A DNA stretch of 57,797 bases, the filler included, from Sphacelaria rigidula (taxonomy: Eukaryota): assembly GCA_964200075.2 (NCBI GenBank). It is 8 parts of 8 records of this genome, joined end to end, with 100 filler letters (N's around TTAATTAATTAA, not from the genome) between each part and the next. Parts side by side here need not be neighbours in the genome. Positions count along the whole stretch, not along the records: positions 28,951 to 36,087 come from CAXNAA020016307.1; 7 more parts are not named here. One strand, 5' to 3'. The notes beneath the pieces are model-generated. The model was given only the letters and a program-made list of their open reading frames with translations. It ran no database searches and was not told where the DNA came from. Both the position numbers and the translations under genes were made by a program. This document shows positions 7,139 through 43,424 of this stretch, piece by piece (positions within the stretch are counted from its first letter, which is position 1; every line of letters starts with the position of its first letter).

Positions 7139-7238
7139 NNNNNNNNNNNNNNNNNNNNNNNNNNNNNNNNNNNNNNNNNNNNTTAATTAATTAANNNNNN
7201 NNNNNNNNNNNNNNNNNNNNNNNNNNNNNNNNNNNNNN
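7139..7238. other. Artificial contig linker (N44-TTAATTAATTAA-N44)
   Basis: 100-bp block with a six-frame-stop 12-mer; identical at 7 positions about 7237 bp apart. Confidence 0.97.
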
Positions 7239-14376: not shown

Positions 14377-14476
14377 NNNNNNNNNNNNNNNNNNNNNNNN
14401 NNNNNNNNNNNNNNNNNNNNTTAATTAATTAANNNNNNNNNNNNNNNNNNNNNNNNNNNNNNNNNNNNNNNNNNNN
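14377..14476. other. Artificial contig linker
   Basis: Same 100-bp N/TTAATTAATTAA block. Confidence 0.97.
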
Positions 14477-16999: not shown

Positions 17000-19900
17000 C
17001 CTGTTGTTTGCTGTCTGGGGGGCGTACCCGCCGACGGTGCCGTTTGAACCTGCCGGGGCGTCTTCGCCTGCGCAGCTTGCGCAGTCGTGGCGTCAAGTGG
17101 GATTAGCGGCGCACAGGTCAGCGGAAGAAGTTCCCGTGGAGCTTGCCGACAGATACATTCCTGCGGAGTTATGTCTTCCGAATCAACGGCAGCGTGGAGC
17201 CATTGTGGTTCGGTCTGTGTTGGATTCTGGAGCCCATTTGACTAGTCTGCCGGTGCAGATGGTTGAGATGCTGGAGCGTCAACTCCCGGGTGTGCCGCTG
17301 CGCATCCTGTTTTCGCTCGGGGCGCGGCAGGCAGTCACCGCGTCGGGTCAGCATGTTTCAGTCACGAAGCGTACTGTTCCGTTGCAGCTAGCCTTCAAGA
17401 CTGCTTGAGGGCTGGCGCCGTTGCCTCCGATCTCGTTTGCGATTGTACCAGGGTCGGGTGGCGTTGTCCTTCTGGGGCTGCCGACGCTACAGGATCTAGA
17501 AGTCCACCCGTATGAGCGGTTGAAGGACTCCATCAAGACGCGGATGTCTCCGCCTGGTCCGCATGTGGAGACGCCCGCCTTTTTGGGCAGTCGTCGCGTG
17601 AGCTTGTCGGTCGATGCTTTTCAGGAGGCTGGGGGGCAGGTGACCGAGGAGCGGGATGCAGCGGTGGAACGCTTAGTAGAGCGCGGCCCAGATATGTTCA
17701 TGGACCCGGCGGAAGAGGAGTCCGCTCGGAAGGTCGCACTGGAGGAGAGCGTGACAGATGCTATGGCGAAAGGCCTCAGCGTCCCCAAAGCGGAACGCCT
17801 GCGCGGCATCTGTGCATCGCCACGTCAACGCGTTTCGTCGTGCGCTTCGGGGTGATTCCCGTGCGCGCGTGGAGCCTATGCGTGTTCAGCTAAAACCTGG
17901 GGCATCCGCGGTGAAGGCGAAGCCGCGGCGGTACGATCCGGTGAAGTCGAGCTGGTTGGCGTCGTGCATGGTGGCTCATTTGACGCTTGGATTTGTAGTC
18001 CGGAACCTGCAGGCGGTATGGTCCAGTCCGGCGATGGCGATTCCCAAGAAAGACTCGTTTCGCCTGGTAAGCGACTACAAGGCCGTAAATGATCAGGTTG
18101 AGAAGTCTCCGGGTGTGATGCCCAATCAAGAGTCGGGCATGCGTGATCTCTTGAGTGCTCGTTTTTTTGGCGAGTTGGACCTCCTCCAAGGTTATTGGCA
18201 GATGCCATTGGCGGAGGAGGCGCAGGAGATTTTCACAATCACGACCCCGTTAGGCTTGTTTACCCCGAAGCGAGTACCGCAAGGCGTGTCGAATGCCACG
18301 GCATATTTTCAAGATACCATGGCAGAACTGTTTGTCGGCTTGAAATGCAAGATATGGGTGGATGATGTGTTTTTTTTCGCGGATACGGAAGACGAACTTA
18401 TAGACACGCTTGATGCTATCTTGGCCCGTTTAGAGAATGTTGGTCTGTTTGCGGCGGCGCACAAATGCACTTTTTTCGCTAGTGAACTCGTATGGTGTGG
18501 GAAAGTGTACTTACACGGACGTATATCTCATGACCCTGTCAGATTGCAAGGCTTGTCTGACATGCGGCGCCCGGAGACGGGCGCAGAACTCATACAATTC
18601 CTGCAAGCCGTGAATTGGCTGCGTATCTCGTTGCCGCGTATGGCAGTACCCGTAGCTCCCTTGCGTTTTTTCCTCGAAGAACTCATGGTGGGTGCTGCGG
18701 CGGACGAAGCGTGTTGCAAAAAAACGCGCTCTTCCGCCTGCATCGTGGGCGGAGGGTAGGTTGCAGGCGTGGGCGGCAGCGAAGGATCTGGGGGCTCACG
18801 CCGTGACGCTGTTCCACCCTCGTCCTGATCGTCAGGTGCTAATGTTTCCGGGTGCATCTGAGTGTCATTGGGGTAATTTCGTTACGCAGCTGCCTAAAGC
18901 GGAAATGCAAAGACGCCTGCCAGTTGAGGACATGACGCATGAACCGGGCTTTCCTCAGTGGTAATTTTAAGGGTTCGCAGTTGCGTTGGGCCACAATTGA
19001 TAAGGAAGGTTTTGCTATCGTAAGCACTTCTCGTCGTTTGGAGCATACTTTGTGGGATGGCGTGCACATTTTCACGGATCACCGAAATCTCGTGTATGTT
19101 TTCAACCCGGAAGCGTGCGTTACGCCTGTGTCGAAAGCATTGGCACAAAGTTTGGAGGGCTGGAAAGCTGTTCTTGGCCAATACCGTTACTCAATTTGCC
19201 ATATTTCGGGTGACCGTAACGCGTGGGGTGACTTGCTTTCGCGCTGGGTGAATATTCCCACTTTGCCTGTGCGCGCTGTGGCTGTGTATGGTCCGTGTGA
19301 ACCTGATGACTCGATGCCGTCCAAATCTGTTGTCCGCCAAGCCCAACGAAAAGATCTTGGGACCGAAGATGCGGGTGTGCAATCTTTCGAGTCGGACGTT
19401 GGTACTGCTATCTTGGACAATGAGGGTATGTTTCGTGTGCATGTACGCGGCCGAAACGTTTTGTGGATTCCGAGTTCTGACAAGCAGTTGCAGGTACGTC
19501 TGATGATTTGTGTGCACATGCGACGCCGGGCGTCGTGGTGTGGTTGCGACGCTCGTGCGCTTGCAAGAGTTTTGCGTCTGGCAGGGGATAGAAACTCGTG
19601 TGCGCGCATTTGTTCGCCAGTGTCTTCACTGGGCTGACTCGAGGGCGGGCGATGTTGTTCCTCGCCCGCTCGGCGGGAAGGTCCATGGGACGACGCGGAA
19701 TGAAGTCGTTCATTTTGACTTCTTGTACGTGAGCGAGAGTGACCCGCTAGCTTCTCAAGGTTTGCCGAAGGATGCTGGGTTTCGATACATTTTGGTAATC
19801 ATAGATGATTTGAGCAACTTTGTGGCTCTGGAACCAGTAGCAGCGTGTACTGCTGAATCAACCGCTGCATCTTTGCTGAATTGGTGCAAAACTTTGGGGG

Positions 19901-20872
19901 TGCCGCGTGTGTGGGTGAGTGATACCGTCGCGCATTTGAAGAATGCGATCTTGGCCCGATTGCGAGAGGCTTTGCGCGTTGATCACCAGTTTAGTGGTAG
20001 CGTATTCTCCGTGGTCTAACGGTACGTGCGAACGCATGGTCAAGGAAGCACTTTGTGCTCTTCGCTCTATTCTTCTCGAGCAGCGTTGAGCGGTTTCCGA
20101 GTGGGTGGACGTGTTGCCCGCGGTGCAATGGGCGCTTTATACAGAGTATCGTCATCGTTACGATAGTACGCCGTAACACGTGATGTTTGTTCGTGCCCCT
20201 CGGACGTCTTTCTCGGTCCTCGCGTCTTCGTCAGCGGGGGAATGGAAGTGTGATGTTTTGGACGATGTTCAAATTAGGAGTGCATTGCAAGGAGTCTTGG
20301 ACGTGCAAGAACGTTTCCACGTTCGAGTGCAGGAAGGTGTTGCCGCTGAACGTGTGCGTCGACGTGAGGGGTCCTCGTCGGGACTGGAAATGCCGAATTT
20401 TGAGACAGGTGACTATGTCTTGTACGTACGCGTGCGTCGTCTGGGTGTTATTACGCCCAAGTTGATGGTAACGTGGACTGGTCCATGGAGAGTGGTTGTT
20501 GCTCACCACCCGCACGTGTTTGAGATTCAAAACATTGTTTTGGGTCGTGCTCAGACCGCCCATGTAGCTCGTTTGCGTTTTTATGCAGACTCGCAGCTTA
20601 ATGGTACGGCTGACGTTAAGGACGTGTTCCAGCATGCTTTCAATCAGGGGCAATTTCAGATGGTTGGTGTTGTCCGAGTTGCAGAAGCAGATGGTTGTTC
20701 GTTGATCGTGTTGGTCGACTGGGTTGGTTTCGAAGTTGAGGAGCGTACGTGGGAGCCTTTCGAGGTTATTTTTGAGGCCGCTCCGGAATTTCTCACGAAG
20801 GATGTGCGTAAATTGCGCGTGAATCGTGCCGTTGCTGCTCGCATTTCGAATGAGTTTGGTATTCAGTTGTGA
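17000..20872 (+). pseudogene. pol: Gypsy pol pseudogene (protease, RT, RNase H, integrase, chromodomain)
   Basis: VLDSGA (Asp at 17223); LDLLQGYWQ, PQG and WVDD (18355-18366); WATIDKEGFAI and FTDHRNL; VHFDF...WVSD...CER integrase core; LVDWVGFEVEERTWEP chromodomain. Stops at 17406, 20087 and 20174; frameshifts near 17820, 18700, 18945, 19520 and 19990. Confidence 0.93.
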
Positions 20873-21613: not shown

Positions 21614-21713
21614 NNNNNNNNNNNNNNNNNNNNNNNNNNNNNNNNNNNNNNNNNNNNTTAATTAATTAANNNNNNNNNNNNNNNNNNNNNNNNNNNNNNN
21701 NNNNNNNNNNNNN
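21614..21713. other. Artificial contig linker
   Basis: Same 100-bp N/TTAATTAATTAA block. Confidence 0.97.
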
Positions 21714-25200: not shown

Positions 25201-27550
25201 TAACGCATCCAAGACGGCGGCATATGGTAGAGGGCGAGGCCCTCCCATATGCATACCGGTTTCTGGGCAATGGAGGTCGAGGACGTAAACGGGCGTTGAA
25301 AAGCGTCTAATCGGGTGAAATCCAGGTTCGTCGGGTTCCTTTTAACGGCAAGCCGGGCTGGAATCTGCGGCCGTAGGCGGGAGGGGTAGTCGAGAAAGAA
25401 GATCAGCGTTCCCGTTGGTTTGGCCTGGACGGTGCTTAATGGTATACTGGTATGCTGTTAGAAACTCCAACCATTGTTGTACACGCGTGTTGTGTTCGCC
25501 AACTTTGGCGAGTAGTTCGAGTGCTCCATGATCCGTTTAAATCTCAAGGGGCACGTGAAACAGATATTGTCGAAGGCGCTTAATGGCCCAGGTGATTGAT
25601 CCGACTGCCAGTTCTAGCGGGCTCCAATTGGCCTTATTGGGCAGCGTGGCGCAGCTGATATAGATGAGGGGTCGTACGGAGCCATCAGCCTGAGGTTGAT
25701 TCAAAACTCCTCAAAATCCGTTTGTGCTGGCGTCAGTGTGGAGTTGGGATAGGCGAGAGCCATCTTGTACGGCCTCCCAATCGGGAAAGCAGAGTACCGG
25801 CTTTTCGGTAAGCGTTTGTAGCAGTTCGCGGGTGATATTCTCCATATCGGTTGTGAACGTAAACACGGCTCCTTTCTTGAGTACCTCAGTAAGGGAGCGA
25901 ATCCGTTTCGATAAGTTCGGCAAAATTTTGCGGTAGTAGAATAGTCCGCCCAACAATGAGCGAAGTTGATAAATGTTATTTGGCATCAGCAAGTAAGTCA
26001 TCGCCTTGACTTTGTTTGTATCCGGATGTAGTCGTGCTGGCATATTGGAATGCCCCAGGAAATCCAAGTCAGTCGCACCGAGGCGAGCTTTGGATGGAGA
26101 CAGTTTCAAATCGTGTGTGCGTAGGCGAGAGAGAAATTATCGTAGAGTGCGGATATGTGCAATGGGTGAGGCATCGAAAGCGATAGCATCATCTAGATAC
26201 ATGATGTGCTCGAGGCCCTCGGTGACGCGTTGCGTTAAGCGTTGAAAGCATCCCGGGGCATTGGCAGCGCCTTGTGGCATTCGAAGCAACTCATACGGTC
26301 CGGACGAGGTACAAAAGGCCGTTAGTGGGACTGTGTCAGGGTGAAGAACATTCTGGGAGAATCCAGAGGCGAGGTCGAAGGTGCTGAAAAATTTTCCTTC
26401 TCCTGAGGAGTCGAAGACGTCATCAACGCGGGGAATTGGAAGTTTACCGACCGCAGTGACGCGATTCAACCATTGATAGTTCACGGTTATGCGTATGTTT
26501 CCATCCTTCAGGGGGAGGACCGCAAGGGGCGAGGCCCAACGAGAGGAAGGATGTTGTATTAGTCCCGGTCCCAAATACGCATCCAAGATGGCGTTAACCT
26601 TCTTGGTAAGGATTGGGTTTGTTCGGTATGGTCGAGAAGAGATCCGCGAGACGCCGGGTTGGAGGATAATCTCGAAGGGCAGCGTTTTGCAATACCCAAG
26701 ATCCGTCTTGGACCGGAAAAATCGGTTTTGATACTGTAACAGGACTTCACTGAGTTCTCGGGTGACTGCCGGTTCCCTGCCGGACTCATGAAGGTCAAAA
26801 CTGATGTCGCTCATGTGTGGCGGCAGTTGGTGCCACATCTGCAAGAAACTATTTCGAGAATATGGTGGAAAGCGTTGAAGCACTTCAGCAGGAGGATCGA
26901 GATTTAACTGGGTAGGATCCACGGCGTGGACCTGGGGTGGAGTCCAAGAGGCGAGGTTGAAATAAGGTTCATCGACACAATGGACTGACTCCGTCGGAGG
27001 TGTTGCGTTTGGCGCGGCAAGCTCTGTTCCGCACGTCTTGAGTGGGATGTGCATCAGGGGGGCAGCGGCGGTTCCTAAAATATCGCCGGTTTCCAAGTTA
27101 GCATGACCCGTAGGGGGGGGGAGTTGTTATCCCGCCAAGACAAAATGTTCTGTGTTGACTGGTGCGTCCATACGGGGAAACATTTCGGAAAGATAATGAC
27201 CCACAAGTGCTGGCATGCCATTTCGGCAAACGAGTGCATCTTCTAAAAGTTGAGGATCGTCGGAGAGTGTATACGCTACTGTTGTATCGTAGGTGGTAAG
27301 TAGCTCCGGTTGCTTGAGTATTCTTTCGGTAGGCAAGGTCGCCGTGGAGTGTATCAAAGTGTTCAAGGTTCAATTCCCCACGAGGCGTGGAATGTGGCAA
27401 TGGTGGTGGAAGCGCGCCGTAGGTTCGTGTATTGAACCGCATATAGCTATATCTGCCCAATAATATGGCGTGGTACATTGCGCTGTCGGGGACAATGTAT
27501 GCCCAGACGGCCAGGCTGGCAGAACGAGTGGTGTTATGAAAGAATTGCAC
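22250..27550 (-). mobile_element. Second-family Ty3/Gypsy retrotransposon, degenerate pol with chromodomain
   Basis: Protease C-terminus AILLGR (27098-27550); RT FDLASGF/RMPQG/YLDD (26137-27096); RT-RH DFLGH...HTDAS (25711-26109); integrase HLGVTRT...CFKCQARK and LLSDNG...TEIVN; chromo HWHGLRRAPWERESDL. Many stops and frameshifts. Confidence 0.92.
23777..24023. mobile_element. 247-bp MITE with GACACTTTCTAC TIRs and 4-bp TSD (TCGT)
   Basis: TIRs GACACTTTCTACAATAGCCCCCCC / GGGGGGGCTATCGTAGAAAGTGTC; TCGT on both sides; removing it restores integrase DVLVHDYIQHYGCP. Confidence 0.92.
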
Positions 27551-28850: not shown

Positions 28851-28950
28851 NNNNNNNNNNNNNNNNNNNNNNNNNNNNNNNNNNNNNNNNNNNNTTAATT
28901 AATTAANNNNNNNNNNNNNNNNNNNNNNNNNNNNNNNNNNNNNNNNNNNN
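28851..28950. other. Artificial contig linker
   Basis: Same 100-bp N/TTAATTAATTAA block. Confidence 0.97.
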
Positions 28951-28994
28951 GATCTGAACAAAACTGCTTGTCGATAAAACGCAGCACTTGTCGT

Positions 28995-29060
28995 TGTGGG
29001 GGCAATCACTTCTCCAAAAGTGATTCTCTTAAAAGTGATAATCACTTCTGATAGGACCCC
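28995..29060. repeat. End of a short element with AATCACTT/AAGTGATT motifs and a GGGGTCCTATCAG terminus
   Basis: Repeated self-complementary motif ending ...GATAGGACCCC; abuts the hairpin arm of the next element. Confidence 0.45.
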
Positions 29061-29214
29061 GCCTAAGTGATGGAAAAAAAACCCTTGTGTGCACTGGCAG
29101 TTTTTTTATTATGCCCTATTCATTGTCCATACCAAATTTCAGGGTCCAACTCTACGTATTGGCCATACAATGGGCCTGCAAACTGCAGGATCGCTTCTCG
29201 GCTGGCCCAGCTCG
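29061..29214 (-). mobile_element. Terminal fragment of the hairpin TIR family (copy D)
   Basis: Reverse complement of ~53678-53842; ends GGCCCAGCTCG|TA directly against the Gypsy chromodomain end. Confidence 0.8.
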
Positions 29215-29216
29215 TA

Positions 29217-32200
29217 CTCCGGCGCTAATTTACTGGTCAGCGCCCGAGTCAACCACATTTTACGCAGTCCTTCAAAAACAATTCAGGCGCAGAAGAATGA
29301 ATCTTGCGAAGAGACTCCCACGTACGTTCTTCAGCACCGAACCTTCCCAATCGACCAGAACAATGACATCACTATTGTCATCCTCAGCGACGTGCACCAA
29401 AGCATTCATCGGACGTTAACCTTGAGCATACGAATGATGAAAAACATCTTTGAGTTCCGCAGTGATGTGCAACTGCGAGTCAGCATAGAAACGTAAACAA
29501 GCGACATGGGCCGAGTGCACGGCGCCAGAAACAATGTTCCGCACCGAATACACATGAGCGTGGTCGGCTCCGACCACTTGCCACGGACCTGTCCACGTTG
29601 ACGTCAGCTTTGGCGTCACACCTTGCCTACGAACACGGGCATACAATACGAAATCGCCAAGTGCAAACTTGGGCAACACAACCTGGCCCTGAGCAAACTT
29701 GCGTTTTGTTTCGCGACACACCGCGACAGCTGCTTGCATTTCGTTACAAAACCGCACTTGCTCGTCAACCACGCCTCGAACCTTGTCACGCAACGAATCA
29801 GCATCCATGACATCGACTTTTCCACTCGCCGCCAGTGACAGAAGCCAGCGGAGAAAACGCTGTACACGGCGCACGCCCAAACATCACACAATACGGAGTG
29901 TTACGGTAGCGTTCAAGAGAAGAAGTATTCAATGCCCACTGAGCGGCTGGCTCGACCCATTCAGACACCGGCCGTCACTGTTCCGACAAAATAGACCGCA
30001 ACGCACGAAATCCTCTTTCATCATGCGTTCACAAGCACCATTCGACCAAGGGGTATTCGCAACAGCAAATTGGTGCTGCACTTTCAGCGCATCGCTCAGC
30101 TACGCGGCAACTCGATTCTTGAAGTGCGTGGCGGTATCACTAACCCAAACATGCGTCACCCCCAAAGTCTTGCACCAGTGGAGCAAGTGCTTCGCCGTAA
30201 CCTCGGCGGTGCAAGCCTCGGTCGGCTTCAAGCAAATGAAATTGGACAAATCATCCATTATAACCGAGACGTACCGAAAAACATCCTCCTCAGGCAAATC
30301 ATTAGCACCTTCAGGTCCGGTACTTCTGGCGTACAAATAATCAAAGTGAACAACCTCACCTGGCGCAGTACCATGCACAGTATCGCCATACGGACGAGGT
30401 ACAATCTAACCAGCACGAGTGTCTACACAATGCAAACACTGGCGAGCGAACTTGCGAACGTGGGAATCCATGTGAGGCCACACTATATTTTTTTCAAACG
30501 AAACAGAGTCAGCGCCACACCACGGTGACCAGCTGACCTCATGTCAGCGCACACCATTAAGCGAGTTTATAAAGCCTTATCATCCGACGGAGTCCACAAA
30601 ACATCACTACTGCAAACACGCACGCGAAACAAACCACCGTCAGCCAAAGTAGCTTGACCGAAAGTCGTGGGAAAAGAGTGGACACCTTTGCCGACTGTTT
30701 TGCGCTGCGCGGTACGAATGACATCGAACGAGGGCAGCGAATCATGGGCATTACACGGGCTGTACACGGCAACAGAACAAACAGGCACGGTAGGAACCTT
30801 CACCAAGCGAGACATCGAACCTCCCAAAAATTGCCGTCTCCAGGAATGAGTTCAATGGCATACCGGTATTGATGTTGAGCTCCCAGCAACTTCCGCATGT
30901 CTCCTTGGCTTGGCATCACCCCCCGGAGACTGTTTCACTTGCACGTTCACCGCCTGATAGTCGCTGACCAAACGGAATGTGTCCCTCTTCGACATCGCCA
31001 TCGCTGGACTCGCCCGTACAGCCTGTGACGATTTATAGGCGACCGATTAGACTACCGTACAGTTAGCGCTGACTGTATGGTAGTCTAATCGGTTGCCTAC
31101 AAAACGTCAAAAAAGTCCGTCGCTGGTTCGATTCCCGTCGGACGCACTTTCTTTGAAGAATAAAAGGAAAACCCTACCTCCGGTAAAAAAAAAAAAGTGA
31201 TGGGGGAGAGTCCAATGCCCGAGTTGACTGCTAGAGACCCCAGTGCACACACTCTGGAAATGAGTGAGGGAGACGAGTAACTCCGAGTGGATACGTGTGG
31301 CAACATTACACCGATACCGTAAGCGCAAACATTTATATAGCGCTGGTAAGAGGCGTCGCCCTCCTCGAAGTGAAGGTGACGGGGATCGAACCCCCACAAC
31401 TGACTTTTGTGACGATTTATAGGCAACCGATTAGACTACCGTACGGTCAGCGGCTGACCGTACGGTAGTCTAATCGGTTGCCTATAAATCGTCACAAGCC
31501 TGAACATTCCTTACCAACAAACCAAATGTCATCAAAACTGCGATGCATGAGGCAAGACACACGGTCTTCACCGGATCGCAGCGGCGAGGCTTGGCCTTCA
31601 CAGCCTCCTTCATTGGCTCCACGCGCGCTGGCGGATCACCACACAGCGCACGACGAAATGCGCGACGAGCCAAAATATCGCGCAGACAATGTGCGCCGTC
31701 GGCGCTCAGGCCCTTCTGCTCGGCCTGCCGCACACTATTCTCAAGCGTACGTTCTCTTGCACCTCTCTCCTCTGCTGGGTCCATGAACATGTCCGGCCCC
31801 CGATTGACCAAGCGCTCCACCGCTTTATCGGTAGGAGCCCCCTCCTCATTGGCGCTCTGGAATGACGGTATGGATACGATCACACGCCTTGTAGCAAGAT
31901 AGGTGGGGTTTTCCACGCCGGTTTGCACCGGCACAGCACGCGGATGTAATTTGTCCAATGCCAGCGGATATAAATCAATCCCGAGCTCCTTCATCGTCGC
32001 CATCCCAAATAGAACCTCGTTGTCCCTAACGGGCATGACAGCGAAAGTGATGGGCTGCAACTCCACAGCCCCCCACGGCGTACTCACGCTAACAGTAATC
32101 GATACCTTTTTGTGTGTAACCGTCACGGGAGCACCCGTGGTGGTCTGTGCTGTTTGCGGTCCGTTTTCGAACGGCATCTGAAGCTGAGCGACGCCAAACT

Positions 32201-33790
32201 GCGAAGACATCTGTTGTAGCAACTCCACACCGATCGACGTGAGAACGGATCCAGAATCCAGAATAACGTGGGCCATTAACGAACCTACAGGACTAGGTGA
32301 GGATAAATCTGCGCGTAAGCATTCAGCCTCGCGATCGACAGGTACCACGCCTGCCGAATAACCCTGTTCTGTACCAAGGGTCACCTGACGCCAGGGCTGC
32401 CTTCCAGCACTTGGCATCGATGGCTGCGACTCGTCGGTCCAACCAGACCAAGCCACCGAATATGCAGACGGCGCTGTTACAGCCGTCGCAGCAGTAGGGA
32501 ATGCACCAGACACGGATCCTGCCTGGCCGAGGGGTTGCGAGCTATTCGCTCCAGCACTCCCCGCCGGAGTATTTGCATTTCTCACGTGCACTGTCCGCCC
32601 CGCTACGGGCGAGCCATAAGATCCAGAGTCACCACTTGATGACGTAGTGGAAGAAACAGCAGCGGAGGAACCACAATCTGCCGTCGATTGCTTGCTACCG
32701 CGGCCGCCGCGCCCGCGTCCCTGATTGACACGGCCCCGTCCACCGTGACGACCGCCCCAAGATCCTGATGAATCTCGCGCATTGCCGTGTGCAGAGGCTT
32801 GAGCGCGAGGCTTGGGGTAGTCCTTGATCATATGCCCGGTGTCGCCGCAGTTGTAACACGCGCGAGTGGACGACTCTCGCGAAGACGGCTGCTGCTTCTG
32901 TCGCTGTTGTTTGCGGCGTATACTACCTGCACTTGTTGCAGAGTCGCGCCGGCTATGTGCACCATTAAACGTCCACTGGTCGGCCACCTCAAATATTGTT
33001 TTGAACACCACCGTCGGGTTCTTTATTCAGCCGTCAACACACGTCAGTACACTTCTAACCAAAGTCTTGAATTCCGGGGGCGAAATCCTGTCCACCAAAG
33101 CTATGGAAACCGGCTCGGCCGGACCTTGCAACCAACTCCTGTCCTCCGCACGATACATGGCTTGCACCGTCAGGTCTGAGAAAACCTTTCAATAGCTGAG
33201 CTGACCATCATCGCACGGTCCTTAACAGATTTCCCACTGCTTTGTGGCATAGTAAGAACGTTGCGCAGATTTGCTGCAGCCCGCGCAGCTTCATGCTTGC
33301 CGCCTGTTGTAGTATACCCGGCATGTTGCTTTACAGCATTAAGCGATTCGTCGGGGGTCATAGCCCGACGGTCCTTGTGCATATCTTCGAAGCAACGGTG
33401 AATATAGGTAGAAATGAGCTGTGCTATGCTCACTCTCTGATGCCGTATGACTTCTGTATCGTTGCCTAAAATCAGCCTCTCTAGATAGTCGATATATGCG
33501 GCATAAAACCTTCTTGACGCCTCTTCGGTCCACACTTCGCCATCCTTAGGCGGTTCTAACGGCTCACCTTACACCAGCAGTGCTGCCGCTGCTTGAGCCA
33601 TGTCGACTAGACTTCAACACTTCACTGAGAGACTGTTGCCTGGCTCGTGCGTCTTCCAGCCCACGGCGCATATGCACTGCTGTGCGTTTCAAATTGGTCT
33701 CCTCCTGTATGCGGACTAAAATGGCTCTCAGTTGCAGCCCGCTTCTCCCCAGCCAAACTTCTCTCACAGAGTGCCGGGAGAGTATCTAGA
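29217..33790 (-). mobile_element. Ty3/Gypsy retrotransposon related to the contig-3 element; gag present, RT/RH largely deleted
   Basis: Gag fragments (33170-33767); zinc knuckle CYNCGDTGHMIKDY; protease ILDSGS; GPDMFMDPAEE shared with the contig-3 element; integrase VHFDY...WVSD; KLTSTWTGPW; chromodomain. About 1 kb deleted near 30871. Confidence 0.92.
31024..31496. mobile_element. 473-bp non-autonomous element with hairpin termini, TGT...ACA ends and 4-bp TSD (AGCC)
   Basis: AGCC at 31020-31023 and 31497-31500. The right end is a perfect 44-1-44 palindrome (31408-31496); the left end is an imperfect 44-44 palindrome (31024-31111). B boxes at 31125 (+) and 31381-31392 (-). Confidence 0.92.
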
Positions 33791-34839
33791 TATTATAGCC
33801 TCTGCCAGACGATCTGGACAAGAGGACTATCCACGAGGGGCTCCTCCAGTAGCACTCGCCTCGTGCTCGACAAGTCCTGTCTTTTCACTTGTTATTATCA
33901 CGGAGTGATCCTCAACAGACCACATCAGGAGCCAGACAGCAAGGGGGCACACAGATGAGGGCCATCAATCCAGGATCCCCTGTCCCCTGCCACTGCTCCG
34001 CTCATGCATGCGATTATATTGAAACCTACGGCTTGGTATCATTTGGCTACACACCGCAGTGGGTTATTGCGATGCTTGCGTATCGGTATATCCCAATCTT
34101 ACTATGGTCGGTTGTGTCTTTCCGTGGCCGCGAGCGCTGGCGCCGATGCCAGCGGCAGAAGCCGCCATGCTGACGGGTGCAAACAGTACCCTGGCCGTGC
34201 AGTTTATTTGCACTCTGCTGTGCGTTGCTCCGTTCATCGGAGCACGGGGTCTCGCCCAGCCGGTCGAGCGGTGTATATCGGCGCTGGTTGTATGTCTTTA
34301 CCCAGCCATGTTCGGTATCGCGCACGTGATGGGTCCGGGTAACATGAAAGTGTTAACAGGTAGTCAAGTGTGTAGACCGTACTGCGTCCCGACTGATGCT
34401 ACAAAATATTTTACAAAGAGACGAACACAACCATACAGCACCTCAAACAATCTCAGCGGAGACCAAACCGTCTTTGCGAGGTCTCAACACACCACATAAT
34501 AGTGATAGCTACAGCATATATGAGAGAGGACGTGAGTGTGTGTGTGCTGCAGTACAGTGAAAGAGAACACGTATCATGTTTTAGTTCTTCGGCTGATTTC
34601 AAACGGGTCCTCAGTACTTGTCGGGTGCCTGTCTTGAACGCTCGGCCATAATCGTGCTTCACGCAAATAATTTAACTCACAACGAAATCACCCCCATGTA
34701 GCTCTATGGGTCATGTGCCTATTACGAATCGCAAGGGCATACTAGGTGTGACAAAACAAAACTGGCCACCATTTGTTTTCGTGAGTTATGAACGCTACCG
34801 TGAAAAGTGGTCCTTGTTTAACTATAACGTTCCTAAGTC

Positions 34840-35275
34840 AAGAGGAAAATGCTCAATATCCCGCAGACCTTGCCTCTTTGTTAGTACTCCCTTGCGATTC
34901 TCGACACAAAATTTCAAGGCACATGCCTCGAAACTGAGCTGTCAAATGGCCTACAGTATCCAGCTTCGTTGGGGGGCTCGTCCGGCCTGTAAGTCCGGAA
35001 TCCTTACCTCAATTTTTAGAGTTGCAGTGCTGGGGCATATTCAAAGACGCTATTCTGGGACCCCGATAATTTGCTTTTCTATGATTTAGGGACGTTATAG
35101 TGCAGACTGAGTCTTGTTTCTTGCCCTTATCCCATGAACAAAATCTCAAGGCCCCAAAGTCACTGTTTTGTTATGCCGTGGTGATTCTCCTCACCAAATT
35201 TTAATCTGCAACTCTCAACATTGAGGTGAGAATCTGCCTCATCCTGCAGATCCGCTTCTAGGCTGGCCCAGCTCG
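34840..35275 (-). mobile_element. Diverged copy C of the hairpin TIR family
   Basis: Ends GGCTGGCCCAGCTCG|TA; degenerate inverted arms around a 29-bp loop at 35094-35122. Confidence 0.65.
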
Positions 35276-36087
35276 TAGACGTCACCCACCTCAATCTACG
35301 GACCACAGCCATAGTGTACCCAGGGATGAAGGACCTTCAACACCAAGTACGCCCTTGACATTTTTAGGTCGAGTACATGGCATCTGTGTTGGAAAGGCAG
35401 CTTTGGTGCTGTGTTGCCTCGCTAGCAGTCTCGCATAAGATGCCGAGTGGGTGTGAAGCCCACTCACGTTATGCAGGAAACGATAAAAAAAGGTCGAACG
35501 GTTTTTGCAGGCGCTTATGTGACCAACACGTGATATAAGCGCAGTTTTCTCAGAACTAGACTACCAGGATGAGATATACTGGGAGAACTCTGGAGCATTT
35601 TCCGGGAGAGTGATACACCGTGGAAGGGTAGAATTCTCTGCGAGTCGAGTGGTAATCCCTGGGAGAGAGACAAGGGCGTGGCCTCGACTGGTTTCATGAT
35701 AACAAGCTCACGTGCGGACTGGGATGATCCAGCCTAACGTAAGATGGGTATTGGATATTCCAACGCCTCACTATAGAAGGCAACAATTCAGAGCAGCCTT
35801 GCTGTACTAACACTGGGCTGTTTCAATCTGCGTACAATACAGTGTATGGCACTACATGATCCACCAGATGACGCAAAGTAGCACAAGCTGCCCCGCATAC
35901 GCCCAAAATAATGCTTTCAAATGGGCACCCCACACTAGCACCGTTTCGTACAATTGGTATTGGGGAAGGGGGGGTGTAATCATGATCATCCATGTATGTC
36001 GTAGTCATGAAGGGAAGAGGGGGGGGGGAGGGGGGCGTACTCATTTGTTTCTTGCCTTAGTCGTGTGACCCTTGACCACGCATCCCT

Positions 36088-36187
36088 NNNNNNNNNNNNN
36101 NNNNNNNNNNNNNNNNNNNNNNNNNNNNNNNTTAATTAATTAANNNNNNNNNNNNNNNNNNNNNNNNNNNNNNNNNNNNNNNNNNNN
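36088..36187. other. Artificial contig linker
   Basis: Same 100-bp N/TTAATTAATTAA block. Confidence 0.97.
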
Positions 36188-36255
36188 CCAAGGGACAGGG
36201 CGGGAGGGGGGGGGGGTGGGGGTGGGGGGAGGGAGGGGGGGAGACGGGGGAGGGG

Positions 36256-43324: not shown

Positions 43325-43424
43325 NNNNNNNNNNNNNNNNNNNNNNNNNNNNNNNNNNNNNNNNNNNNTTAATTAATTAANNNNNNNNNNNNNNNNNNNN
43401 NNNNNNNNNNNNNNNNNNNNNNNN
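43325..43424. other. Artificial contig linker
   Basis: Same 100-bp N/TTAATTAATTAA block. Confidence 0.97.

Follow-up and report, generated by a model that had tools for sequence, protein, structure and literature searches.

What kind of mobile element ends in two palindromes and carries, within each end, a sequence that recalls part of a tRNA gene? The question is raised by a 473-bp stretch lodged in a Ty3/Gypsy retrotransposon of the alga Sphacelaria rigidula (assembly GCA_964200075.2). We analysed it within a window of 57,797 nt, the whole stretch of DNA under study, which consists of eight pieces of ~7137 nt; the element's own piece covers positions 28951–36087. The element runs from TGTGACG to CGTCACA between two copies of AGCC, as the first-pass annotation of this DNA had read it and as the empty sites described below confirm. 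Tentatively, and with somewhat less than even confidence, we take it to be an inverted-repeat element that is non-autonomous, belongs to the Ginger/Gypsy-integrase type and was assembled out of repeat modules related to tRNA. Coordinates of all features are collected in Table 1.

The 473 bp are a genuine, clean insertion with a 4-bp target-site duplication. Upstream of the element the host frame aligns to P0001, an intact 1647-aa homologue, through residue 695, and the downstream frame restarts at residue 696; excising 477 nt (159 codons) gives ...VQAVRASP..., where P0001 has the equivalent ...IQAVWASP.... A paralogue of the host Gypsy, located in a different piece of the window, reads through the insertion site with a single CGCC. 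Empty sites were also found in related algae, for which we used the DNA contigs of four public runs (X1, X4, X5 and X6; at most three samples, from two studies), placed on the element at a likeness of at least 80%. Since the best-matching runs hold a fraction of 0.21–0.25 of the sampled words, their contigs are treated as relatives or paralogous copies; the long contig pieces listed are ~80–88% alike to the element region. A joint from 31019 to 31497 is present in 2, 2, 3 and 1 contigs of X1, X4, X5 and X6, respectively, and omits 477 nt (473 + 4) with an ambiguity of 6 nt. Five more joints seen in the contig comparison of the related runs, from 31015–31025 to 31507–31547, look like more diverged Gypsy copies that likewise lack the insert. 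The insertion itself was not seen at this locus in the contigs of the four runs, and none of the contigs listed reaches across the whole stretch. The duplicated word is actually AGCCTG, so that the placement of the junctions is uncertain by 2 nt. The element had been described as a clean insertion into the Gypsy reverse transcriptase (RT). The insertion holds by all three comparisons (P0001 residues 695/696, the paralogue and the joints), but its site lies 9 residues ahead of the Pfam RVT_1 domain as placed in P0001, at the N-terminal edge of the RT and not in its core.

The palindromes of 88–89 bp previously reported at the two ends are both present, and the right one is indeed perfect (44-1-44). 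As RNA, the left palindrome is predicted to fold at -60 kcal/mol (z = -14.1) and the right one at -80.1 kcal/mol (z = -17.4), each compared with 200 shuffles. The window has four matches to an arm-derived 20-mer, every one within the element, and its shuffles have 0, in agreement with the claim that one 44-mer is present four times. When the two ends are aligned in inverted orientation they match over 119 aligned nt at 86.6% (31024–31139 versus 31496–31378), with a shorter match of 47 nt at 91%. The ends being palindromic, there is a direct match between them as well, of 87 nt at 90.8%. The right 89-nt repeat is bounded by TG...CA, while the inner end of the left repeat reads ...CGTCAAA. At the pair 31445/31459 the right hairpin has G-C where most related contigs, and the element's own left hairpin, have A-T; this single compensated change preserves the palindrome and could stem from either selection or arm-to-arm copying. 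An assembly artefact was considered as the source of the palindromes and rejected, as opposite-strand hairpin joints (31055 to 31444 and 31072 to 31452) are found once in each of the four related runs. Rfam searches with the hairpins returned only generic microRNA-precursor models, far under their gathering scores, which we rejected as palindrome matches; no hammerhead or other ribozyme was among the Rfam matches.

It had also been proposed that the ends are tRNA-derived heads carrying convergent promoters for RNA polymerase III (Pol III). The B box is found on both sides as claimed: GGTTCGANNCC has two matches in the window, both in the element and on opposite strands (31125–31135 (+) and 31382–31392 (-)), with ~0.5 expected. 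Measured start to start, it follows an A-box-like word by 44 nt (left side) and 46 nt (right side), and the canonical spacing in tRNA genes is ~44 nt. The A-box-like word is loose, with 37 matches in the window versus 24 expected. The left arm reads TGGTAGTC, not CGGTAGTC as had been stated. Likewise, the GTCAC stretch said to follow from each hairpin is there on the right, but the left side reads GTCAA. By eye, the 3' part of the left module resembles the 3' half of a tRNA gene: a T-stem with 4/5 pairs is followed by CGGACGC-A, as in a 3' acceptor strand, and then by a T-rich trailer.

Searches for tRNA genes gave little beyond this. ARAGORN at default thresholds called 0 tRNAs in the window, and Rfam gave no tRNA match on 1.5 kb. 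Aligning the head to tRNA models did not bear out a tRNA origin either, the 106-nt left piece matching only tRNA-Sec in Rfam (E = 1.1; 14.6 bits, the gathering score being 47) and the right module matching nothing tRNA-like. Nor does the predicted folding of the two modules exceed that of shuffles (z = -1.07 and +0.22). When the ARAGORN threshold was lowered to 80%, three calls fell in the element (31070–31145 (+), 31330–31404 (+) and 31370–31449 (-)), among 34 in the whole window versus a mean of 34.6 in five shuffles; at 90% the single call in the window was 31330–31404 (+), versus a mean of 0.9 over 20 shuffles. With the B boxes set aside, what resembles a tRNA here hardly rises above noise, if at all. 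The B boxes and their spacing weakly suggest that the element ends descend from a tRNA-related repeat. Convergence of the putative promoters is not established and the right-hand one could be assigned to either strand, because the best sub-threshold cloverleaf on the right lies on the + strand, in tandem with the left one. On that strand the first run of at least four T after the left module is 31405–31408, which abuts the right palindrome; the left palindrome is likewise adjoined by A6, read as T6 on the - strand.

The statement that the element has no open reading frame holds only loosely. Its interior is crossed on the - strand by stop-free frames of 112 and 107 codons, but neither matches a Pfam family at E <= 1. 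In the related algae, summed contig depth, which is not the same as copy number, varies ~220-fold over the element in X1 (2,412 to 534,019) at comparable contig counts of ~20–90 per position: the four arm bins range from 7,651 to 33,107, positions 31316–31366 have 2,412, and the Gypsy flanks have 11,198–125,656. Two interior segments have 10–200 times the depth of the remaining element in the four runs. Because depth spreads so widely at comparable contig counts, we conclude that these segments are part of repeats far commoner than the hairpins. The arms are represented by 22–39 distinct X1 contigs at 31445 and 31459, and contiguous interior is found in a 1350-nt contig (31119–31331) and in another (31168–31390), that is, over 213–223 nt at roughly 80–86% identity. 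Arms and interior are thus both repeated in related genomes; no complete related copy is among the contigs listed from the four runs. Judged by eye, the loose-end consensus before 31221 is like a tRNA D-arm/A-box, and that before 31101, which comes from 14 reads of X6 alone with an agreement of 0.69, looks like the inner arm. These data suggest that the interior segments belong to a very abundant tRNA-related repeat in related algae, possibly a short interspersed element (SINE).

How might such an element move? According to the excerpted account of the Ginger transposons, Ginger1 has TGTNR termini, a 4-bp duplication and terminal inverted repeats of 40–270 bp, the ends of Gypsy long terminal repeats (LTRs) likewise follow the TGTNR pattern, and the Ginger transposase is related to the Gypsy integrase (PMC2836005). 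The earlier remark that the ends and the 4-bp duplication fit retroviral-type DDE enzymes agrees with this account (PMC2836005). A brown-algal precedent is offered by the curated Ectocarpus table, with its 4-bp duplications in nearly all Gypsy rows and one element marked 'possible Ginger?' (PMC12477816). From the ends and the duplication length we infer that an enzyme of this class, either a Ginger-like transposase or a Gypsy retrotransposon integrase, would act in trans and join double-stranded 5'-TGTGA...TCACA-3' ends to the target, where cuts staggered by 4 bp would give rise to the AGCC duplication. Each end, of roughly 117 bp, would derive from a degenerate module related to tRNA, and an inverted duplication of the module's 5' half would have yielded the 88–89-nt palindrome. 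The interior shares segments with repeats far commoner in related algae. The transposition intermediate would have been DNA and not RNA. A DNA intermediate is favoured because the inverted-repeat ends are long and no primer-binding site or polypurine tract was seen beside the 89-bp repeats, and also because the ends are ~9% diverged while the right palindrome has 0/44 arm mismatches and the left one 6/44, which would be unexpected had the ends been identical at integration. The upkeep of the palindrome across copies, as seen at the pair 31445/31459, also speaks for the reading as an inverted-repeat element.

A number of observations weigh against this reading. A solo LTR of Gypsy type, which is a serious competitor, would also show the TG...CA ends, the 4-bp duplication and a length of 473 bp. 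The target of Ginger1 is reported, in the excerpted account, as CCGG/CCGT, whereas the element sits at AGCC, CGCC in the paralogue (PMC2836005). A literature search turned up no Ginger transposons reported from brown algae, its sole brown-alga match being the surname Gingeras, and the excerpted part of a curated table of Ectocarpus repeats has no Ginger entry beyond one 'possible Ginger?' (PMC12477816). The AGCC duplication is seen in the one full copy known: the window contains no second copy, an arm 19-mer and an interior 25-mer each had 0 matches in public metagenome contigs, and three element motifs had 0 matches each in public viral contigs. A genome-contig locus (L001) that matched an arm 18-mer has only those 18 nt in common with the element and was dismissed as a chance match. 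Finally, the uneven depth means that the element does not represent one uniformly abundant family in the relatives.

The solo LTR belongs to a broader alternative, serious though in our view less likely, in which the element is an LTR-type unit: either the solo LTR of a nested Gypsy-type or LARD-like (large retrotransposon derivative) element, or a tiny retroelement resembling a TRIM (terminal-repeat retrotransposon in miniature) or SMART (small LTR retrotransposon), with the 89-bp palindromic ends serving as its LTRs, that is copied via RNA by a Gypsy RT and inserted by a Gypsy integrase. Besides the ends, duplication and length, this would account for the nesting within another Gypsy copy, which is the usual pattern, and where Gypsy elements abound in a genome a solo LTR is what one would ordinarily expect. 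The palindromic ends also double as direct repeats. In Ectocarpus, the curated table as excerpted lists Gypsy LTRs of 231–636 bp and a 4-bp duplication in nearly all Gypsy rows (the exceptions being two fragments given as NA and ECR-2, given as '?'), with a 5-bp duplication for Copia (PMC12477816). What such a unit explains poorly is the architecture, in which the 119-nt terminal inverted repeat and the sub-terminal palindromes make up about half of the element. The terminal inverted repeats of LTRs are usually short, and this extreme symmetry is the sole argument against a solo LTR. Against a TRIM there is more to say: by eye, no TGG that could belong to a primer-binding site lies within ~10 nt inside either 89-bp repeat, and no purine-rich tract is apparent (5/16 purines before the right repeat and 9/16 in the mirror stretch at the left). 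Moreover, the inner end of the left repeat lacks the ...CA of an LTR, and end repeats that differ by ~9% next to one perfect palindrome are a poor fit to ends that are identical at integration.

Two further explanations take the palindromes as their starting point. In one, a hybrid that we consider improbable, tRNA-derived heads are transcribed inward by Pol III, the hairpins self-prime or regenerate the outer arms, and a Gypsy integrase inserts the DNA copy. The B boxes on both sides at nearly canonical distance, the T runs abutting the inner side of both hairpins, and the integrase-type ends and duplication all agree with it, and the outer arm, as the reverse complement of the module's initial 44 nt, might in principle be regenerated from a transcript starting at the hairpin tip. 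The tRNA-like signal that it needs, however, is that of a window without a default tRNA call, in which the sub-threshold calls, the folding of the modules and the frequency of the A-box-like word are as set out above, and the best right-hand cloverleaf is on the + strand. The T12 run on the - strand (31196–31185) would halt Pol III about 250 nt in, far short of the left end, and a transcript from an internal promoter would miss both outer arms. Taken to its full extent, the proposal would make the element a SINE-like parasite of LTR retrotransposons and not of long interspersed elements (LINEs), combining Pol III transcripts, fold-back rebuilding of the arms and insertion by a Gypsy integrase with a 4-bp duplication; judged by the sequence, we would give this very little credence. 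In the other explanation, equally hard to credit, each 88–89-bp palindrome is a minimal element consisting of inverted repeats alone, and two copies together moved the intervening stretch of roughly 295 bp, as in a composite transposon. Each palindrome does start with TGTGACG and the right one also ends with CGTCACA, and the opposite-strand joints found in each of the four runs reveal that related genomes contain complete hairpins. Such a composite is unlikely because the inverted repeat extends ~30 nt further inward beyond both palindromes, through the B box; in addition, the inner flanks AAAG (31112–31115) and CTTT (31404–31407) are not duplications of AGCC, and the X6 consensus before 31101, as read by eye, suggests that the inner arm is part of the repeat module and not a separate insert. 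A non-autonomous inverted-repeat element moved by a retroviral-type enzyme remains our preferred, if tentative, reading.

Table 1. Position and strand of the element, its parts and its host in the window (a dot marks features given no strand).
Feature	Position	Strand	Remarks
Element	31024–31496	.	473 bp, TGTGACG...CGTCACA ends
Left target-site duplication, AGCC	31020–31023	.	read in sequence; empty-site joint; paralogue with single CGCC
Right target-site duplication, AGCC	31497–31500	.	read in sequence; empty-site joint; paralogue comparison
Uninterrupted target site CGCC in the paralogous Gypsy copy	18012–18015	-	paralogue itself at 17058–20869 (+)
Left terminal palindrome	31024–31111	.	outer arm 31024–31067, inner arm 31068–31111; 6/44 arm mismatches
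Right terminal palindrome	31408–31496	.	perfect 44-1-44, centre 31452; 0/44 mismatches
Full terminal inverted repeat, left member	31024–31139	.	palindrome plus B-box region
Full terminal inverted repeat, right member	31378–31496	.	inverted alignment to left member
Left degenerate tRNA-like module	31066–31146	+	A-box-like TAGTCTAATCGG at 31081–31092; B box 31125–31135; CGGACGC-A; T-rich trailer
Right degenerate tRNA-like module	31370–31455	-	homologous to left module via the inverted repeat; B box 31382–31392 (-)
Sub-threshold cloverleaf	31330–31404	+	reuses near-palindromic T-arm; the window's sole ARAGORN call at 90%
Internal A12 run (T12 on -)	31185–31196	+	sequence read
High-depth interior segment 1	31112–31162	.	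summed depth 534,019 in X1; 81 contigs at 31117
High-depth interior segment 2	31214–31315	.	summed depth 404,872 and 108,553 in X1; 71–80 contigs at 31235 and 31267
Host Ty3/Gypsy copy	29208–33535	-	decayed, internally deleted; gag CCHC, protease, RT start, integrase

The Gypsy copy that received the element carries stop codons. A 509-codon frame above the element contains the CCHC knuckle and a weak protease match, and fragments below it match the integrase core. There is no equivalent of P0001 residues ~745–1080, the alignment passing from ~744 to ~1081 at a break at 30875–30883. Having lost most of the RT and RNase H, the host is a deletion derivative and, like the element, non-autonomous. 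In P0001, the closest intact homologue, the domains follow one another as CCHC, RVT_1 (705–857), RNase H, H2C2 and rve. One source attributes this protein to a Marinobacter metagenome-assembled genome, a label that most likely reflects eukaryotic contamination of a bacterial bin. The paralogous copy at 17058–20869 (+) is of the same lineage and corresponds to P0001 residues 379–1647 at 44–72% identity, in several frames. An LTR pair was not found for the host copy or for the paralogue. Elsewhere in the window, an RT/RNase H-like stretch at 25372–26790 (-) that is 25% identical to P0001 residues 613–1112 probably stems from a different LTR-retrotransposon lineage.

The eight pieces of the window are separated by seven 100-nt spacers at ~7237-nt intervals (7139–7238, 14377–14476, 21614–21713, 28851–28950, 36088–36187, 43325–43424 and 50562–50661). 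Each has the form N44-TTAATTAATTAA-N44, the linker letters having been read at 2/7 spacers and the geometry being identical at 7/7. In the search for host LTRs, an apparent 101-nt direct repeat was rejected as an artefact of these N spacers. A long G-rich run (36188–36240) stands immediately after the spacer that closes the element's piece.

If other copies confirm the reading that we prefer, the locus would present a small inverted-repeat element with ends of retroviral-integrase type in the genome of an alga without a described Ginger-like transposase. It would then be worth asking whether Gypsy integrases, or an undiscovered relative of theirs, can mobilise DNA elements in trans, and tRNA-related repeat modules would have been reused as transposon ends. 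The very high abundance that the two interior segments reach in related algae is indicative of a family of tRNA-related repeats. Such a family has no obvious counterpart among those curated for Ectocarpus and merits an annotation of its own. If the element proves to be a solo LTR, the locus would be an ordinary one save for an unusually symmetric LTR.

Among known systems, none of the excerpted family descriptions from Ectocarpus, which cover one species and mainly its abundant families and were compared as descriptions only, fits a ~470-bp TGTGA-ended element with a 4-bp duplication (PMC12477816). The most abundant unclassified Ectocarpus repeat, Sower, makes up 1.2% or about 2.5 Mb of that genome according to the excerpted report (PMC3145265). 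By its matching size it may be the same as RTEX-N1_Ec32, a family of 2.48 Mb described in the excerpts as a roughly 600-bp LINE-dependent element with C-rich duplications (PMC12477816). If the two are equated, that description leads us to reject Sower as the family of our element. Closer is DNA5-N1_Ec32, which is non-autonomous, measures 502 bp, has TGTTG-CAACA ends and a duplication of 5 bp, and is annotated as 'possible Ginger?' in the same excerpts (PMC12477816). Compared by description only, it resembles our element in its size of ~500 bp, its lack of autonomy, its TGT...ACA termini and a duplication length like that of LTR retrotransposons, but differs in the 5 bp of that duplication and in having an imperfect inverted repeat of only 9 bp.

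With the solo LTRs of Ty3/Gypsy elements our element shares the TG...CA ends, the 4-bp duplication, a length within the 231–636 bp excerpted for Ectocarpus (PMC12477816) and the nesting in a Gypsy copy; it departs from them in that its 119-nt terminal inverted repeat with two palindromes takes up about half of its length. Like TRIMs and SMARTs, the element is small and non-coding, with direct terminal repeats and TG...CA ends. TRIMs and SMARTs are characterised by these same traits and are presumed to use the RT and integrase of autonomous elements. The end repeats of our element, however, are palindromic and unequally diverged, and no primer-binding site or polypurine tract was seen adjoining them. 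The hallmarks of tRNA-derived SINEs are a tRNA-related head with A and B boxes, a 3' tail and a duplication of variable length of the LINE type. The element recalls them through its B box, an A-box-like word at tRNA spacing, the T-arm with a 3' acceptor strand, and interior segments that are hyper-abundant in relatives. It differs in having a 4-bp duplication, inverted-repeat ends, an internal A12 and no terminal 3' tail; 44 nt of it lie outside the would-be transcription start, and there is no default tRNA call. Among the literature matches listed there was no relevant precedent for a tRNA-like palindromic miniature inverted-repeat transposable element (MITE), or for a tRNA-derived MITE with Pol III signals.

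The likeness to Ginger1 and Ginger2, as far as the excerpted account goes, consists in the TGTGA...TCACA ends, the 4-bp duplication and inverted repeats inside the range of 40–270 bp (PMC2836005). Autonomous Ginger1 elements are described there with a transposase that has YPYY, H2C2, DDE and GPY/F features (PMC2836005). Our element has no transposase partner known, and it stands apart from both Ginger groups in that each of its ends is palindromic and contains tRNA-like sequence. The first-pass annotation had concluded that the element fits neither the SINE, the MITE nor the TRIM definition. This is right for SINEs, given the tail and the duplication, and for TRIMs, given the primer-binding site and polypurine tract. 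For MITEs it is too strong, because the element has terminal inverted repeats and a target-site duplication, is 473 bp long and has no recognisable coding capacity: by the working definition of the class (terminal inverted repeats, duplication, small, non-coding), it counts as a MITE-like element.

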